From Escherichia phage vB_EcoP_PAS59, in the sequence record OQ921332.1: a stretch of 64,000 nucleotides of DNA, one strand, 5' to 3'. Below the pieces are notes generated by a model. It saw only the letters and a list, made by a program, of their open reading frames with translations. It was not told the origin of the DNA and made no database searches. This document shows positions 206 through 47,121 of the stretch, piece after piece. A program made the translations under genes and the position numbers. How positions within the stretch are numbered: position 1 is the first letter of the stretch; every line of letters starts with the position of its first letter.

Positions 206-393
206 TGTTTCATGAGTGGATTATTGATGTATGTATCATTAGACTGGTATTAGTTTCTTTTATCATTCTTTTAGGTCTGTTTCTTTTTCAGCGTGTCTTT
301 ATTCTTTTTCTTTTAGTTGTTTGAGTAAATTATTTGACTGGTAATTTACTACCGCATGGTCTGACCTGTTACCTGTAACTAACTTACATTATA

Positions 394-492
394 CCCTACC
401 CGTTTCCCCTTCCCCGTTAGGCTTCTTACCCATTGGCTAACCTATGCGGCACGTCTTACCCATCTATCTATCCCGTTGGTCTGCTACCCGTT
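394..492. repeat. iterated short motifs CCCGTT (x4) and TCTTACCCAT (x2)
   Basis: read from sequence; no ORF of 60 aa or more in bp 1-700. Confidence 0.4.
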
Positions 493-608
493 CTGTAAGT
501 GTTATAAAATTGTAAGCTGTATCTCTGAACAAGAAAGTTTAGTAAATTAAATTCTCTTTATATTCAGTGAGTTAGGATTATAAATCTAGATAGTTTGAAA
601 ATAAGTGG

Positions 609-636
609 TTGACATGTTTTTCCTTTAATGTATAGT
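609..636 (+). promoter_or_regulatory. sigma70-type promoter TTGACA-N16-TATAGT, overlapping a TAATGTATAG motif (626-635)
   Basis: consensus -35 at 609-614, -10 at 631-636. Confidence 0.45.
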
Positions 637-770
637 TGCAATCGTAGTTTGAATTATCGTTAATGAAGCAGTGATGTAAAGTAGTTAGCGGTGATAGTGA
701 GCAGTGAAGGTTGATCAGCCTAAGTAACTACACACGACAAACAATCTTTCATTTATCAGGAGTAGTAATA

Positions 771-1271
771 ATGGCTATCAAAGCAATGCAGGCTATCAAT
801 CTAGCGTCCTATGCACTGGTTGCAGCTATCGGTGTTAGTGCTATCGCTACCAATGTTCAGGCTAAAGATGATAAAGTGTTATCCGCTCCTACAGGTCTGC
901 AATCCTTTGTTAGCACGTTTAAGAATGCTCCTGATATGACTTGTCGTGACGTTGGTAGTGATGGTAATGATGCCTTCTGGCGTGTACACTTCAATGAAGT
1001 CACTACCGCTAATGTGCGTGTCACTCTTACCCCATTGGGCGAGAAATCTGGCACTCAGTCAGTCATTAAATTGAAACGTGCTGATAGTGATCATGACATG
1101 GTTACTTATTCTCTATATCAGAAGGTTGAGAAAGAAAAATTACAGTTTGTAACTAATCTCGTTAGTTATGGTGATGTGAGTGAAACCGTACTCGCTACTA
1201 CTGCATATCATGACGGTGTAGCAGTTTATACAACCTTTATTAACTTTGCTAATTGTGATATTGTTCAATGA
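771..1271 (+). CDS. secreted protein of unknown function
   Basis: ORF track 711..1271, start moved to ATG 771 behind AGGAG; N-terminal signal peptide MAIKAMQAINLASYALVAAIGVSAIATNVQA. Confidence 0.55.
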   Translation: MAIKAMQAINLASYALVAAIGVSAIATNVQAKDDKVLSAPTGLQSFVSTFKNAPDMTCRDVGSDGNDAFWRVHFNEVTTANVRVTLTPLGEKSGTQSVIKLKRADSDHDMVTYSLYQKVEKEKLQFVTNLVSYGDVSETVLATTAYHDGVAVYTTFINFANCDIVQ

Positions 1272-31309: not shown

Positions 31310-31801
31310 ATGAATAATATTGACCCGTCAATAAAAGAAGCTCTTGATTACGACCCTTTGACTGGAGATTTCCGATGGGTTAAAACTTATGGAAAAGGAC
31401 ACAAAGGGTCTATAGCTGGTTCTGTAAATACCAATGGGTATTTGAGAATCGTTTATAAAGGTGCTAGATACTACGCTCATCGACTTGCTTACTGGTGGGA
31501 CACTGGATTGCTTCCTGAAGAAGTAGATCACATAGACCGCAACAGGATAAACAACAAAAGAGAGAATCTTAGGGGGACTACTAGATCAGGAAATGGCCTA
31601 AACAAAGTAGCTCAGAGTAATAATTTATCAACCGGAGTGATTGGAGTGACTGTCCATAGAAGGAAAAGTGGCTCTATTGCTTACCGGGCGGTATTTAAAT
31701 CTAAGCACATAGGACTCTTCTCAACCATAGAAGAAGCCTCTAGGGAATATAATAAAGTCAAGGAGACTTACATAAATGACAATCAAAGCTTCATTAATTG
31801 A
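31310..31801 (+). CDS. HNH homing endonuclease (HNH + AP2-like)
   Basis: ORF track; AHRLAYWWDTGLLPEEVDHIDRNRINNKRENLR; paralogous to 42242, 45226, 46618; overlaps ThyX start. Confidence 0.7.
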   Translation: MNNIDPSIKEALDYDPLTGDFRWVKTYGKGHKGSIAGSVNTNGYLRIVYKGARYYAHRLAYWWDTGLLPEEVDHIDRNRINNKRENLRGTTRSGNGLNKVAQSNNLSTGVIGVTVHRRKSGSIAYRAVFKSKHIGLFSTIEEASREYNKVKETYINDNQSFIN

Positions 31802-41057: not shown

Positions 41058-41113
41058 TATACAAACCGCTCAAAGAGAGCAACAATCTTAAATCTATATA
41101 AGGAAATATTAAT

Positions 41114-41854
41114 ATGTCTATGATCCCTGAACTGTCTGTATCCCGTAAATCCAACTACGATGTAATCCCTGATGGTGAGTACGAAGCACGTATTGTTCGT
41201 GTTGTAGGTTTGGGTGTTCACAATCGTGACCCTTGGATTGACCCTAAGACCAAAGCAGTTACCCCTAAGAACCCAGCTTTCCGTATGGACTTAGCTTTTG
41301 AGCTGATTGGCGTAGATGCAACAGGGACTGATAATGAAGGCAAACCTCTGGACCCTCGTCCTGCTTGCCAGTTTAAATCTTTCGATGTAAACCCACGAGC
41401 TAAGAACTCTGGTATTCTAAATCTGATTAAAATGATCGACCCAAGTGTTCAAGCACTGAAAGGTGATTTGGGTTGGTTTAAAGATATGCTGTTAGGTCAG
41501 CCTGTTAACATTCTGGTTAACTCTTACACCAATAAAGCTGGTGAGAAGAAAAACTCCATTAAAAGCATCACTCCAATCCCGACTAAATATCGTGACGCGG
41601 TAGGTGCTCCTCGTAGTGAGTTGATCTTCTTCGAACCGTATGCTGAGACTGACGCTAACTTAGCTGCTTATCAAGCAATCTTCCCATTCCAACGTAACCT
41701 CTTGACTCAAGCTAACGATGCTAAGAATATCCCTCTGGCTGGTCGTGAAGTTACTAAAGCTTCTGATACTGAACAGAAAGATGCTACTCCAAGCATCCCT
41801 ACCATTAATGAAGAGCCGCAATCAACCTTTGAAGAGGATGATTCGCCTTTCTAA
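41114..41854 (+). CDS. single-stranded DNA-binding protein (T7 gp2.5-like), putative
   Basis: ORF track; acidic C-terminal tail ending FEEDDSPF; position in the replication module. Confidence 0.45.
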   Translation: MSMIPELSVSRKSNYDVIPDGEYEARIVRVVGLGVHNRDPWIDPKTKAVTPKNPAFRMDLAFELIGVDATGTDNEGKPLDPRPACQFKSFDVNPRAKNSGILNLIKMIDPSVQALKGDLGWFKDMLLGQPVNILVNSYTNKAGEKKNSIKSITPIPTKYRDAVGAPRSELIFFEPYAETDANLAAYQAIFPFQRNLLTQANDAKNIPLAGREVTKASDTEQKDATPSIPTINEEPQSTFEEDDSPF

Positions 41855-41876
41855 GAATCTCTCCTTGTAACAGCTT

Positions 41877-41900
41877 AGCCACCTTCGGGTGGCTTTTTTC
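41877..41900 (+). terminator. rho-independent terminator (overlaps the GTG/ATG region of the next gene)
   Basis: AGCCACC-ttcg-GGTGGCT followed by TTTTTTC. Confidence 0.5.
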
Positions 41901-41912
41901 GTTGGAGTTAAA

Positions 41913-42254
41913 ATGGAAAAGCTTCAAAACAATATAGGTTTTTTAATCTTCACAGCTCTGGTTTTCTTTGGTGGTGTCAAGTTTGAGCAATACAGAAGTG
42001 ATAGTAATGCTCTTGACCATGAGAAGAAACAGCAAGAGATTGAGGTTGAGAGAGCTAAGGCTGCTGATGAAGTGGCTCAGAAAGTTCTGACTGGTTTATC
42101 TAACTGGAAGAAGAACACGGAAACTATTTACAAAGAGATGCATTATGAAAAGACTAAGCCAGTTTTTTACAATGTGTGTGCTAGTGATGAGTATGTAGGA
42201 CTTTTCAATGAACGACAGCAACAAGCAGCGGAGGCACTGAAATTAAAGAATTAG
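41913..42254 (+). CDS. i-spanin-like protein (N-terminal TM helix plus periplasmic coiled coil), putative
   Basis: internal ATG of ORF track 41889..42254; its C-terminal GLFNERQQQAA is repeated at protein level at 42743-42775. Confidence 0.4.
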   Translation: MEKLQNNIGFLIFTALVFFGGVKFEQYRSDSNALDHEKKQQEIEVERAKAADEVAQKVLTGLSNWKKNTETIYKEMHYEKTKPVFYNVCASDEYVGLFNERQQQAAEALKLKN

Positions 42255-42736
42255 TTAAATATCTATCTTACAATGAGGTTTCTGGTCTTCTCTGCTGGAA
42301 ACAGTCTGAGGATAAGAGCGCTCAGTGGAATTCAAGATTCGCTGGAAAGGTGGCAGGTTGTAAAGCCACAGATGGCTATACAGTGATTACCTATCAATAT
42401 AAACAGTACAAAGCTCATAGAATTGCTTGGTATATCAAAACTGGAGAGATTCCTGATTTTCAAATAGACCATAAAGATTTAGACAAATCTAATAATTCTT
42501 GGAGCAATCTAAGAAGAGCAACACCTGTCCTTAATAATGCCAACAAAATAGTTCAAAAGAACTCTTTAACTGGAATAAAAGGTGTAGGGTACAGGTCGGA
42601 TATTAACAAATGGAGTGCTCGCATCGGATATCAAAACAAAGTAATTTGGCTTGGTTATCACAGCACTCAAGATGGTGCAGAAAATGCTTACAAAGAAAAA
42701 GCAAAAGAGTTGTTTGGTGATTTTTCTCGCTTCTAG
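42242..42736 (+). CDS. HNH homing endonuclease; start proposed at ATT 42242
   Basis: ORF track gives 42350..42736, but the conserved N-terminal region (KELVKYLSYNEVSGLLCWK, aligning with LKRLLKYDPNSGQFTWK of 45226) lies upstream in frame with no ATG/GTG/TTG; GGAGG 7 nt before the ATT. Confidence 0.55.
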   Translation: MKELVKYLSYNEVSGLLCWKQSEDKSAQWNSRFAGKVAGCKATDGYTVITYQYKQYKAHRIAWYIKTGEIPDFQIDHKDLDKSNNSWSNLRRATPVLNNANKIVQKNSLTGIKGVGYRSDINKWSARIGYQNKVIWLGYHSTQDGAENAYKEKAKELFGDFSRF

Positions 42737-42950
42737 TTTGATGGCTTGTTCAACGAGCGACAACAGCAGGCAGCTAATGCCCTTACCAACAAACCTAAAA
42801 GCTGAATGTGATGTAGACCTCCCTTTACTTCAGAGTGGACAGGGAGTAGCACTTGCAACAACACTCGAGTGGTATCAGGACAATTATACAACCTGTGCCG
42901 CTAACCACAACGGTTTGCTTAAAGCTCTCAAGGAGAGAGGAATACAATGA
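42672..42950 (+). CDS. o-spanin-like lipoprotein, putative
   Basis: internal ATG of ORF track 42651..42950; KKKQK n-region, hydrophobic core, LMAC lipobox-like site; overlaps the remnant i-spanin 3' end in another frame. Confidence 0.4.
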   Translation: MVQKMLTKKKQKSCLVIFLASSLMACSTSDNSRQLMPLPTNLKAECDVDLPLLQSGQGVALATTLEWYQDNYTTCAANHNGLLKALKERGIQ

Positions 42951-43171
42951 TCAGAGCGGAACTTACAATACCAGAAGGTGTTACTCAGTTTCATGCAGTA
43001 TGGGAACACAATAACCAAATCTTTGGTTGTACCTTCAAGTTCTTTATTAATGAAAATGGGTCTTATTGGGCTTATTATGTCCCTGAAGATGATATATGGT
43101 CTCGGATTGGGCATCCAAGTCAACACATTCCTTGCCCTGAAACAGCAATGTATTTATTCTGCGTAGTTTAA
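42947..43171 (+). CDS. hypothetical protein
   Basis: ORF track. Confidence 0.4.
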   Translation: MIRAELTIPEGVTQFHAVWEHNNQIFGCTFKFFINENGSYWAYYVPEDDIWSRIGHPSQHIPCPETAMYLFCVV

Positions 43172-43195
43172 TATAAAGTAAGTTAAGGATGACTT

Positions 43196-43846
43196 ATGAA
43201 GAAAAAGACAACACCCACACGCTATCGTATTCATGGCATACCTATTAAATACTACCCAACCTTCGATGAATTCTATCGAGAGAATTGGAAAGTTGTGCAT
43301 AAGTATTTTATGTACGACATTAAAGATTATCACGAAGCAGAGGATGTTGCTCAGGAAGTGTTACTGAACTCTTGGCGTTTTGTATTTGCAAAGCAAGAAG
43401 AACTGCTGCTTACCGATGAAAAAGATATTGAACACATGACTTATCGTGTGAAGAATATCATCTGGTCGATTCGTTCTAATCGACAGACAGTTGGAGACAG
43501 ACGTATCTATTCTATTCCAGAGGCTGATATGTTTAGACCTCCCGAGATGAATTCATGGGAAAGTCCTTTAGAGATTGCTATGGATAAGCATGATTCTACT
43601 GGAGACCCATTCTTGGAATCTAGAATCTTTTTCTTCTTCCAAGACCTAAGTGATATTATGGAAAACCGCAAGATGGCAAGTATGTTCTCAATGCTCTTCC
43701 TCGGTATTCCTCATGATCACATCCAACAAGAGCTGGGAATTTCACACGGAACCTTCTATCGCCGTTATTCGGAGAATCGTGATCTGTATGAAGCGGTAGT
43801 AGAGAAGCACTTTGATAAAGAAGATCTTCAAGGGATGATTCAATAA
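43196..43846 (+). CDS. ECF-like sigma factor (phage-encoded), putative
   Basis: ORF track; region-2-like [15 protein letters not shown]; C-terminal HTH-like [19 protein letters not shown]. Confidence 0.5.
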
Positions 43847-44442
43847 TGAGTAAACCTTTAGTAGTAATCCTAAATGGACCTCCGGGTTGTGGTAAAGATA
43901 CAATCGCTAATGCTTGGTTAGAGAAGACAGCTGGTAACACTGAGTTTAGACCGCATGTAAAGGCTTTTAAGGAGCCTATGTATCGGGTGGCTGCTGCTGC
44001 ATTAGGTCTCCCTCTTTATGAGTTCATGGAGCTGTACAACGACCGTGAGTGGAAAGAACTTGTCCGTCCTGAATGGGGAGGTAAGTCAGTTCGAGATTTG
44101 ATGATTGCAACTAGCGAGAATTATCTGAAGCCTATGTTTGGTGAGACCTGCATGGGTAAACTTGCTGTTAGCAGTATCCAACAACATATCCCATCACAGA
44201 ATGATGTTATCGTCTTCTCTGATGGTGGTTTTAGAGCAGAAGTTGAAGAACTAGAGAGACACTTCCATGTTCGAGTAGTTCAGGTTCTCCGCGATGGCTG
44301 CTCCTTTGAAGGAGACTCCCGTTCTTATATTGAAGGAACAAACCTACCAACCTACCTCCTCTTTAATGACCGTTCTGTAGAAGAGGCAGTTGAGGATTTA
44401 GAGTGGATTATTGAAGGGACACGGAGAGATCTCTATGTCTGA
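43846..44442 (+). CDS. P-loop nucleotide kinase (dNMP kinase-like)
   Basis: ORF track; Walker A ILNGPPGCGKDT. Confidence 0.55.
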   Translation: MSKPLVVILNGPPGCGKDTIANAWLEKTAGNTEFRPHVKAFKEPMYRVAAAALGLPLYEFMELYNDREWKELVRPEWGGKSVRDLMIATSENYLKPMFGETCMGKLAVSSIQQHIPSQNDVIVFSDGGFRAEVEELERHFHVRVVQVLRDGCSFEGDSRSYIEGTNLPTYLLFNDRSVEEAVEDLEWIIEGTRRDLYV

Positions 44443-45253: not shown

Positions 45254-45741
45254 TCTTGGATAGAGAAGAGTTAAAAAGGCTTCTCAAGTATGATCCAAAT
45301 AGTGGTCAGTTTACTTGGAAAGTTAAGAAAGGTAGGAAGAATGTTGGAGATGCGGCTGGATGCTTTTATGGAAAACATAGATACCGCTGCATCAAGTTAA
45401 ATCAAATATTGTATCAATCTCATAGACTTGCATACCTTTACATGGAAGGTTACATTCCTGATTGTGTAGACCACATAGACGGAGACCCTTCTAATAACAA
45501 GTGGTGCAATCTAAGAGAAGCAACTTTAAGTCAGAATCAGTGGAACAGAAAGATCTCTATAAACTGCACTTCCGGAATCAAGGGAGTCTCTTTCCATAAA
45601 AGAGCTAATAAGTGGAGAGCTATTATTGGAGTGTCTGGGAAATCTATCCATCTAGGGTATTATGCAACTAAAGAAGAGGCTGAAGAAGCCCTGAGACTGA
45701 AAAGAGAAGACCTACACTTAGGCTTTCATCGTCACAAATAA
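45226..45741 (+). CDS. HNH homing endonuclease (HNH + AP2-like)
   Basis: ORF track; SHRLAYLYMEGYIPDCVDHIDGDPSNNKWCNLR. Confidence 0.7.
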   Translation: MVMVKQGMVILDREELKRLLKYDPNSGQFTWKVKKGRKNVGDAAGCFYGKHRYRCIKLNQILYQSHRLAYLYMEGYIPDCVDHIDGDPSNNKWCNLREATLSQNQWNRKISINCTSGIKGVSFHKRANKWRAIIGVSGKSIHLGYYATKEEAEEALRLKREDLHLGFHRHK

Positions 45742-46617: not shown

Positions 46618-47121
46618 ATGAATGAAGAGAAGTGGACCCATTTTCTATACTCCTCTGAATCTCCTTCTGGATTTCTCTGGAGGAGTAAACCAGCCCCTTT
46701 TGTAAAAATAGGAAGCGTGGTAGGTACGAAAAACAAGAAAGGTTATTGGGAAATCAACACCAAAAACTCTGGAAGAATTAAAGCTCATCGGTTGGTTTGG
46801 GAGTACCATAATGGACCTATCCCAGAAGGGTTTTTGGTAGACCACATAGATAATAACCTAGACAACAATACAATAGAAAATCTTAGACTTTGTAATGCGA
46901 AGGAAAGTGCTAGGAATACTAGAGGTTGGAGCAGTAAAAGAGATTCTTTACCTAAAGGTATTCATGACAACTCTCATGGAGGAAAGAATCCGGGATACTA
47001 CCAAGCTCGAATTTACATATCAGGTAAATCTTACACGAAATCTTCATACGATATCTTATATTTACACAGATGGCTTAAGAGTAAAAGAGAGGAACATCAT
47101 GGAGAGTTTAAAAAAGATTGA
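46618..47121 (+). CDS. HNH homing endonuclease
   Basis: ORF track; AHRLVWEYHNGPIPEGFLVDHIDNNLDNNTIENLR. Confidence 0.65.
   Translation: MNEEKWTHFLYSSESPSGFLWRSKPAPFVKIGSVVGTKNKKGYWEINTKNSGRIKAHRLVWEYHNGPIPEGFLVDHIDNNLDNNTIENLRLCNAKESARNTRGWSSKRDSLPKGIHDNSHGGKNPGYYQARIYISGKSYTKSSYDILYLHRWLKSKREEHHGEFKKD

Follow-up and report, generated by a model that had tools for sequence, protein, structure and literature searches.

How can an endonuclease gene settle in the overlap of two other genes and leave both of them readable? The question is raised by a locus at positions 41,913 to 42,950 of a 64,000-nucleotide stretch of Escherichia phage vB_EcoP_PAS59 (record OQ921332.1; the whole stretch is called the window), in which a gene of HNH homing-endonuclease type lies between two candidate spanin genes, i-spanin upstream and o-spanin downstream, and the C-terminus of the i-spanin is encoded twice, once on each side of the endonuclease. 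The best explanation, which we consider likely, is that a cassette carrying the HNH gene inserted into the overlap of the two spanin genes and restored both. An earlier note on this DNA had proposed a spanin locus split by an HNH endonuclease and repaired by duplication of the end of one gene; that account stands for the i-spanin tail, but the o-spanin was severed and repaired as well, so that two genes were mended and not one. The three genes and their displaced parts lie on the plus strand.

A cassette of fixed length interrupts an overlapped spanin pair

A megablast search with positions 41100-43900 of the window returned 98 phage records, all of them E. coli or Shigella podophages of the Gordonclarkvirinae, with vB_EcoP_SU7 (Suseptimavirus) as the best match (96.7% over the full length). 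The window is from an SU7-like coliphage of the Gordonclarkvirinae, genus Suseptimavirus. At least 80% of the query is covered by 22 of the 98 records, most of which match in two pieces (82% coverage) and are without about 545 bp. Six sequenced phages among the 98 carry the cassette (SU7, Bas86, Bas87, EK010, E20-1 and KM01), and because these are isolated phages, cassette-bearing phages are viable.

Alignment with the HNH-free phages UKE3 and Paul places the inserted cassette at 42197..42741 (545 bp). The cassette begins after GATGAGTATGT (42196) on the left; on the right its end, ambiguous by 1-2 nt, comes just before (T/C)(G/A)GCTTGTTCAA, with GCTTGTTCAA at 42744. The distance from junction to junction is 561 nt with the insert versus 16 nt without it. 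The insert measures exactly 545 bp in every one of the HNH-carrying alleles having both junction motifs (17/17), and the 16-nt distance was found in 10 of the 11 HNH-free alleles examined directly (UKE3, Paul and nine metagenomic or IMG/VR alleles), the left-motif search giving no match in the eleventh. The earlier proposal that the endonuclease landed in the 3' end of the i-spanin gene is borne out by these HNH-free relatives, and aligning them, as had been suggested, defines the insertion site.

The uninterrupted site reads ...GATGAGTATGTCAGCTTGTTCAACGAGCGACAACAG... in the HNH-free allele. In UKE3 and Paul, the i-spanin ends in ...EYVSLFNERQQQAANALTNKPKS and a stop, and within its gene, in the +1 frame, begins the o-spanin, MKRLSQFFTMCVLVMSMSAC/STSDNSRQLMPLPTNLK...; in the HNH-free relatives the o-spanin follows the pattern M(K/R)(R/K)L..MSMSAC/STSDNS and is overlapped in the same way. 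The curated Paul record names the two genes i-spanin and o-spanin, with a transmembrane domain (TMD) and a LipoP SpII signal. The spanin pair is therefore overlapped in HNH-free relatives and outgroups and separated by the HNH gene in the window, and the embedded Rz/Rz1-type arrangement that had been suggested for the window does not describe either state. Two outgroup alleles, L114 (~70% i-spanin identity) and L113 (~51%), are HNH-free at the site and overlapped, with ALT(N/Y)KP-type tails. As the outgroups are HNH-free and overlapped, and as both scars of the event are present in HNH carriers, the direction of change was insertion and not deletion. In IMG/VR, a scan with a single protein gave one distant match only, and an exact-pattern scan gave two HNH-free genomes.

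HNH-free i-spanins vary unusually at the insertion site, where YV-S-LF is replaced by YVIMF, YILMF, YIRMF or YVKLF (alleles P0004, P0008, P0009, P0012, P0016, L017 and L021). The variation also alters the lipobox region of the o-spanin in the other frame, which reads MSSC in L017 and L021. These variants could be cleavage-resistant targets. Allele L113 has a different HNH_3 gene immediately upstream of the i-spanin gene (434-856), with the spanin pair intact and overlapped.

The i-spanin has a recoded replacement tail

The hybrid i-spanin gene (41913..42254, frame 0, 113 aa) matches PHROG phrog_1152, 'Rz-like spanin', at E=3.5e-33, and its homologues in SU7, UKE3, EK010 and Paul are annotated as Rz-like spanin or i-spanin. 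Its product has an N-terminal transmembrane segment, NIGFLIFTALVFFGGV, visible as a hydrophobic stretch in the sequence, followed by a periplasmic helical domain; in the Paul homologue the TMD is annotated at residues 8-23. Positions 41913-42196 are native bases and 42197-42254 are the cassette-borne tail, so that the reading frame ends in ...DEYVGLFNERQQQAAEALKLKN and a stop (in short form ...VGLFNERQQQAAEALKLKN). The replacement 3' end itself, 42197..42254, encodes (V)GLFNERQQQAAEALKLKN and a stop.

The displaced native 3' end lies on the far side of the endonuclease, at 42743..42805 in frame 2, where it encodes (G)LFNERQQQAANALTNKPKS and a stop and has no start codon; read directly on from the HNH stop, the HNH frame gives FDGLFNERQQQAANALTNKPKS and a stop (42737..42805). 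Over 14 aligned codons (42198-42239 and 42743-42784) the two tails share 13 of 14 amino acids, with synonymous codon differences at 10 of the 13 identical residues and a nucleotide identity of 29/42. The motif LFN.RQ..A occurs only twice in a six-frame translation of the 64-kb window, once in each tail copy, so the similarity is not due to chance. From GCTTGT (42744) onwards, the nucleotides of the downstream copy are identical to those of the HNH-free allele. Judged by this alignment, the upstream copy is the diverged one and part of the insert, and the downstream copy is native. The earlier note was right in placing the i-spanin, the HNH gene and the synonymously recoded second C-terminus where they lie, and in reading the upstream copy as a replacement end brought by the insert.

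The new tail keeps the family-invariant residues F98, N99, Q102 and L109 in all cassette types, and was found only together with the HNH gene. All 19 alleles with a recoded tail that we examined have the endonuclease directly downstream; they represent 8 of the 11 clusters with such a tail, out of 25 i-spanin clusters in total. A recoded tail free of the endonuclease, which the earlier note had named as refuting its reading, was seen in none of them.

The o-spanin takes its signal peptide from the endonuclease gene

The original start and signal peptide of the o-spanin survive upstream of the insert as a vestige of 17 codons, MKRLSQFFTMCVLVMSM (42145..42198, frame 1), that ends at a TAG created by the left junction. 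In HNH-free UKE3 the same frame runs on as MKRLSQFFTMCVLVMSMSAC/STSDNS..., which is the o-spanin. The insertion fell on the lipobox itself and so separated the o-spanin from its own signal peptide.

The present o-spanin gene (42684..42950, frame 0, 88 aa) has a new 5' end joined to a native mature part. It matches PHROG phrog_2425 (E=2.3e-23) and, weakly, the Rz-like phrog_456, and the SU7 record annotates an 'O-spanin' with a start equivalent to 42684. The longer lipoprotein-like frame pointed out earlier, 42672..42950 in frame 0, exists with its KKKQK n-region, hydrophobic stretch and L-M-A-C lipobox, and passes a PROSITE-style lipobox rule; its ATG at 42672 is not conserved, SU7 having AGG there. 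The new signal peptide, MLTKKKQKSCLVIFLASSLMAC (42684-42749, from ATG 42684), is encoded by the 3' end of the HNH gene read in the +1 frame. The bases for the HNH C-terminus ...NAYKEKAKELFGDFSRF and stop supply, in that frame, its first 17 codons; its KKK n-region derives from the conserved AYKEKA motif, and it leads to the lipobox Cys, TGT 42747-42749. The displaced i-spanin tail is kept because its bases encode, in frame 0, the lipobox Cys and the mature N-terminus of the o-spanin. That the old 3' end is retained for the sake of the o-spanin was correctly foreseen; the overlap, which had been placed at the o-spanin start, instead takes in the closing codons of the signal peptide, together with the lipobox Cys and the N-terminus of the mature protein, and the start codon lies inside the HNH gene.

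Such a signal peptide is not what the 3' end of an AP2-containing endonuclease gene generally offers. We compared the 3' ends of HNH-AP2 homologues in IMG/VR, 59 distinct ones in all: in 26 of them the +1 frame stays open over 20 codons or more, and in only two is it both open and as hydrophobic as that of the window. The idea that AP2 tails are 'pre-adapted', any +1 frame being hydrophobic, was rejected as a general property on this count, and the overprinted signal peptide is therefore unusual and not a generic by-product.

The HNH gene is intact and probably begins at a non-canonical codon

The homing-endonuclease gene (42242..42736) has 164 codons counted from ATT 42242, its proposed start, and encodes an HNH_3 domain with a candidate AP2-like domain. 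HNH_3 is matched in Pfam at 51.2 bits against a cut-off of 24.8 (E=9.5e-14), and AP2, in the C-terminal part, at 25.2 bits, below its cut-off of 33.3; a full-length match was obtained to PHROG 99 (E=5.6e-57), and a sequence search of the PDB with the HNH protein gave no relative. In an alignment with the Moogle and phiEB49 homologues, D76, H77, N84, N85, N89 and N98 are invariant, among them the catalytic columns D76, H77, N89 and N98. The reading frame is intact and without internal stops over its 164 codons in all 17 alleles that span the whole cassette, and the ratio of non-synonymous to synonymous substitution rates (dN/dS) is 0.08-0.13 in the core. All three reading frames of the locus are intact and under purifying selection.

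No stop interrupts the HNH frame between 42212 and the TAG at 42734-42736, and the first ATG, GTG or TTG codon in it is GTG 42350. Homologues nevertheless align from residue 1-2 of the translation that begins at ATT 42242, the Met1 of the Moogle and phiEB49 enzymes aligning exactly with that codon, and dN/dS is 0.17 over the 36 codons before the GTG (42242-42349). A GGAGG Shine-Dalgarno (SD) sequence (42230..42234) lies 7 nt upstream of the ATT, within the i-spanin codons GCG GAG GCA, and the HNH and i-spanin genes overlap by 13 nt.

Just before the catalytic motif, positions 42362-42411 form a hypervariable patch, in which CKATDGYTVITYQYKQY stands against CKTKAGYVTLNFQRKTY, CLIDAGYIVVRFNGKAH, CKTDIGYITIRFNRKTY and CKTEQGYIVIRFNGKSY; pairs with 89-92% identity elsewhere have 20-23 differences in these 50 nt. 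It may serve as an element of specificity, or it may stem from recombination.

The plus strand of the window also holds HNH_3-type homologues at 45265-45732 (38% identity), 31343-31771 (34%) and 46711-46887 (41%, a partial match only), so that this genome contains several homing-endonuclease-like genes. A Felix O1-like source from a position next to spanin genes was considered and no link was found: of the closest homologues outside this group, the Moogle HNH gene lies between prs and nadV, and that of phiEB49 after the major head protein gene.

Cassettes of several types occur in different backbones

Phages in GenBank, a pattern scan of metagenomes and contigs encoding i-spanin homologues together gave 19 HNH-carrying alleles. 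Both junction motifs and the whole cassette are present in 17; in L107 the left motif has diverged and in L112 the contig ends inside the HNH gene, and in both an HNH gene is called directly downstream of the i-spanin gene. The cassettes fall into four types, given here with example members. Type A (the window and SU7) has the i-spanin tail ...GLFNERQQQAAEALKLKN and the o-spanin signal peptide MLTKKKQKSCLVIFLASSLMAC, and type A' (Bas86 and Bas87) has the same tail with the signal peptide MLTKKKQKSCLVILLASSLMAC. Type B (EK010 and KM01) combines the tail ...SLFNQRQEEAKRVLKSKE with (V)HIKKKLLSCTGILLAFSLSAC, and type C (L103 and L104) the tail ...KLFNTRQEEAKRILKSKE with (V)HTKKKLLSCLGILLAANLTAC, each tail being followed by a stop. 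Compared with that of the window, the HNH protein is 87% identical in A' and ~64% in B, and the DNA of the insert is 65-69% identical between A and B or C.

The double repair is common to all types. Every whole-cassette allele (17/17) has an in-frame recoded tail with its own stop and a signal-peptide frame open to the native Cys. The o-spanin start occupies a homologous nucleotide position throughout, as ATG in A and A' and GTG in B and C, with an element GGTG, GGAG or GAGGA (types A, B and C) lying 6-8 nt upstream. The PROSITE-style lipobox rule is satisfied by the new signal peptides of types A, A' and B as well as by the ancestral one, and the Paul o-spanin homologue has a LipoP SpII score of 18. 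At the HNH start, the codon equivalent to Met1 is ATT in all type A and A' alleles and ATC in all B and C alleles (L003, L008, L018, L103 and L104), preceded by 7-8 nt by GGAGG in type A and by AAGAGGG or AAGAGGA in types B and C, always within i-spanin tail codons.

Insert and flank identities disagree, and they do so in both directions. Bas86 and Bas87 have identical inserts (100%) in flanks of 91.6% (left) and 94.9% (right) identity; for Bas86 and L102 the insert is 98.9% identical between flanks of 72.6% and 92.1%, and for L103 and L104 it is 96.0% between flanks of 74.4% and 78.1%. The window and Bas86, conversely, have nearly identical flanks (99.6% and 99.5%) around inserts of 88.6% identity. 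No cassette type is confined to one backbone, each being found in Kuravirus-like as well as in Suseptimavirus-like ones. From these cassette identities at odds with flank identities, we conclude that the cassette moves. An active homing endonuclease would give the pattern seen in the discordance, the dN/dS values and the invariant catalytic residues taken together.

Proposed history of the locus

The ancestor probably had an overlapped spanin pair, in which the last ~115 nt of the i-spanin gene, read in the +1 frame, also gave the signal peptide and lipobox of the o-spanin. Exactly at the lipobox codons, a free-standing cassette of HNH_3/AP2 type, 545 bp long, would then have inserted and broken both spanin genes. 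At its 5' end it would have supplied a diverged in-frame i-spanin tail with a stop, whose last codons double as the SD and start region of the HNH gene. The final ~50 nt of the HNH reading frame, which form the 3' end of the cassette, would provide in the +1 frame an SD element and a start codon, followed by an n-region rich in Lys and by a hydrophobic h-region, and this new signal-peptide frame would run straight into the native lipobox Cys and so re-equip the o-spanin. The native i-spanin tail would stay downstream as an untranslated reading of bases that code for the o-spanin. We infer that the endonuclease cuts the HNH-free allele near GATGAGTATGTCAGCTTGTTCAACG and spreads by repair of the double-strand break, that it is translated at a low level from AUU or AUC, coupled to i-spanin termination, and that the hybrid spanins work in lysis.

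Several points weigh against this history or parts of it. The spanin assignment is drawn from sequence features and annotation (PMC6139136), and cleavage, homing and the lysis functions are likewise predicted from the sequence. No allele has ATG, GTG or TTG at the homologous HNH N-terminus, and weak initiation at AUU or AUC is suggested by the alignment, the SD sequence and dN/dS. The type C signal peptide has the core L-T-A-C and fails the strict lipobox rule at position -4. In the 63 nt where the HNH gene and the signal peptide overlap there were 0 synonymous differences at ~12 sites in three within-type pairs; this is not significant, as the insert diverges unevenly along its length, with changes concentrated in a hot spot (42362-42411) and few in its 3' half. 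Suppressed synonymous change was therefore dropped as proof of dual coding, and independent cassette lineages are too few for a formal selection test on this overlap. The recoded tail could have come either from a foreign donor or from divergence after duplication, and the discordance of flank and insert could also arise by ordinary phage recombination.

Why the tail is recoded has more than one possible answer. The earlier suggestion that it may protect against self-cleavage is sound only if the target spans the junction, because the left flank plus an unrecoded copy would rebuild the whole target. With a recognition site spanning GATGAGTATGT/CAGCTTGTTCAACG, an unrecoded duplicate would restore that site completely at the left junction and recoding would be required, whereas on the right the left half-site would be replaced by the 3' end of the HNH gene; this would be consistent with the suggestion. 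The recoding may equally reflect a separate history of the cassette, as has been argued for comparable elements in fungal mitochondria, or the fitting of an HNH SD sequence and start into the tail, or it may avoid creating a direct repeat, through which the element would be deleted.

Could the HNH gene instead sit in a self-splicing intron or a like element, with the real i-spanin made of the upstream part and the downstream native tail? Removing 545 bp would indeed restore a near-ancestral i-spanin frame, and the Bas86 and Bas87 records flag the i-spanin coding sequence (372..1264) as a two-piece join across the HNH gene. We regard an intron as very improbable. An Rfam scan of 41600-43300 gave no family, and no group I or group II intron model, at E<=10 in the endonuclease region of the insert; its seven sub-threshold matches were chance matches to small-RNA families, none an intron model. 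Only ~50 nt of the insert lie outside the HNH frame, too little for a ribozyme core, and no stable local RNA structure was found, folds of four regions that might hide the HNH or o-spanin start being no more stable than shuffled sequences. Further, the upstream tail is in frame, has its own stop and retains its invariant residues through 10 synonymous changes, which makes sense only if it is translated. Nor is the insert an intein, since its length of 545 bp does not divide by 3 and the HNH gene is read in another frame. A programmed -1 frameshift yielding an i-spanin-HNH fusion was also rejected: the slippery sequence T_TTA_AAA occurs in type B only, and fusing a nuclease to a periplasmic protein would be senseless. 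That heptamer (L003, ~1632-1640, GTT TTA AAA) lies in the type B i-spanin tail before the HNH frame opens and, being absent from types A and C, is probably a coincidence.

A more serious alternative, although still an unlikely one, is that the cassette is a fixed, immobile relic whose endonuclease is inactive or barely made, that it is retained because the spanin genes now need its two ends, and that the mosaicism comes from ordinary recombination in co-infection. The want of a canonical start at the HNH N-terminus would fit such a relic, as would the dual coding of both HNH ends with spanin parts, which makes imprecise loss harmful, and the general mosaicism of Kuravirus and Suseptimavirus genomes. 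Spanin constraint does not, however, extend over the whole HNH gene, where dN/dS is ~0.1 including the catalytic core; the frames are intact in all whole-cassette alleles, identical inserts sit in the flanks of Bas86 and Bas87 that differ by 5-8%, and the cassette is present or absent among close relatives. The converse polarity, with the separated, HNH-containing arrangement ancestral and the overlapped one produced by deletion of the endonuclease, is formally possible in the T5-like case (PMC6139136), and here we give it hardly any credence: the HNH-free outgroups with their overlapped pairs and ALT(N/Y)KP-type tails stand against it, HNH carriers still hold the severed signal-peptide frame and the displaced native tail with its stop, and three diverged cassette types with the same 545-bp boundaries are easier to derive from one insertion followed by spread.

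Within the preferred history of insertion and double repair, a further step is tempting, and we propose it tentatively, with slightly less than even confidence: that the cassette is a co-adapted mobile module of three parts, its endonuclease gene dual-coding at both ends and kept at a very low level of expression by its conserved AUU or AUC start, which is coupled to i-spanin termination, and its overprinted signal peptide an adaptation. In such a module the SD and start of the HNH gene would be overlain by the i-spanin tail, and its AP2 C-terminus by the signal peptide of the o-spanin. If so, the element colonizes a dual-coding site that is among the most conserved DNA of the locus, and its imprecise loss would be lethal to spanin function, so that the element would be locked in.

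Annotation, neighbouring genes and significance

The databases treat this locus in three incompatible ways. The o-spanin is cut to a 57-aa 'hypothetical protein' from MPLPTNLK in the EK010, E20-1, KM01, Bas86 and Bas87 records; in Bas86 and Bas87 the i-spanin is entered as a join of two pieces that bridges the HNH gene; and the HNH start is put at various internal GTG, TTG or ATG codons. The o-spanin start inside the HNH gene is annotated only in SU7. The record coordinates concerned are 2179-2352 in L003, and 1236-1409 and 372-1264 in L005 and L006.

In gene order, a 246-aa protein and a terminator hairpin (41877-41894) precede the i-spanin, HNH and o-spanin genes, and a 74-aa protein (PHROG 30479), an ECF-type sigma factor and a dNMP kinase follow. 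The o-spanin stop overlaps the start of the 74-aa gene as ATGA (42947-42950), which suggests translational coupling of that gene to the o-spanin.

Because both scars can be read, the locus shows how a selfish endonuclease can invade a two-gene overlap and kill neither gene. Overprinting is seen here in a clean natural example, with an origin that can be dated to after the insertion. The locus also accounts for one of the ways in which overlapped spanin genes become separated, and it suggests how such an element can become difficult to lose. In the conserved ATT or ATC start it offers a case, open to testing, in which non-canonical initiation would limit a nuclease. We consider the locus of moderate interest, a tidy and testable example rather than a new principle.

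Relation to known systems

Our literature search found no paper on this locus, the SU7 genome and BASEL papers being silent on it, and no experimental work on this spanin family was found in the literature searched. Phages phiEco32, ECBP2, NJ01 and KBNP1711 are listed among those with two-component spanins (PMC6139136).

The closest spanin parallel is in the T5-like phages Shivani and phiR201, in which a GIY-YIG gene of ~700 bp lies between spanins that are overlapped in T5 (Kongari et al. 2018, PMC6139136). The differences there are confined to the extreme C-terminus of the i-spanin and the o-spanin's lipoylation signal sequence, and the authors pointed out that a functional signal sequence has to remain after the event, whose direction they left open (PMC6139136). 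As in those phages, an endonuclease at the i-spanin 3' end turns an overlapped pair into a separated one. Here, however, the endonuclease is of HNH_3/AP2 type and not GIY-YIG, and both the spanin family and the phage group are others. Compared with that case as published, the direction is resolved in the present locus, the severed stub and the displaced tail are visible, and, as far as the published description allows comparison, the new signal peptide lies inside the endonuclease reading frame in another frame.

The i-spanin half of the repair resembles that of mobile open reading frames (mORFs) with C-terminal duplication in fungal mitochondria, known from Allomyces atp6 and from Glomus atp6, atp9, cox2 and nad3 (PMC3630166). 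Both have a diverged in-frame C-terminus, an endonuclease reading frame and a displaced native C-terminus that matches element-free relatives. The tail copies here share 69% of their DNA and 13 of 14 residues, compared with 63.5% DNA and 91% protein identity for the Glomus atp6 copies (PMC3630166). Unlike the fungal elements, the cassette resides in a phage and not an organelle, its endonuclease is HNH and not LAGLIDADG or GIY-YIG, its target was dual-coding, so that a second gene was also repaired, and the displaced native end is coding in another frame and is no decaying pseudogene.

The seg and mob genes of T4-like phages are free-standing, lie between other genes or inside them, and spread by 'intronless homing' with co-conversion of flanks, and several T4-like endonuclease genes overlap the upstream frame by 11-24 bp, which has been read as low-level coupled translation (PMC2988022). 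The overlap of the HNH gene with the i-spanin gene is 13 bp. Host genes split by endonuclease insertion are also known, as in Aeh1 nrdA/mobE and T4 gene 60/mobA (PMC2988022). In contrast to those split genes, which yield two polypeptides that reassemble, each gene here receives a replacement end, and an AUU or AUC start and an overprinted host signal peptide are not described for the T4-like cases. What the present locus adds to these systems is another endonuclease family and phage group, a resolved direction, the double repair of overlapping genes, a host signal peptide overprinted inside an endonuclease reading frame, and a conserved non-canonical start.

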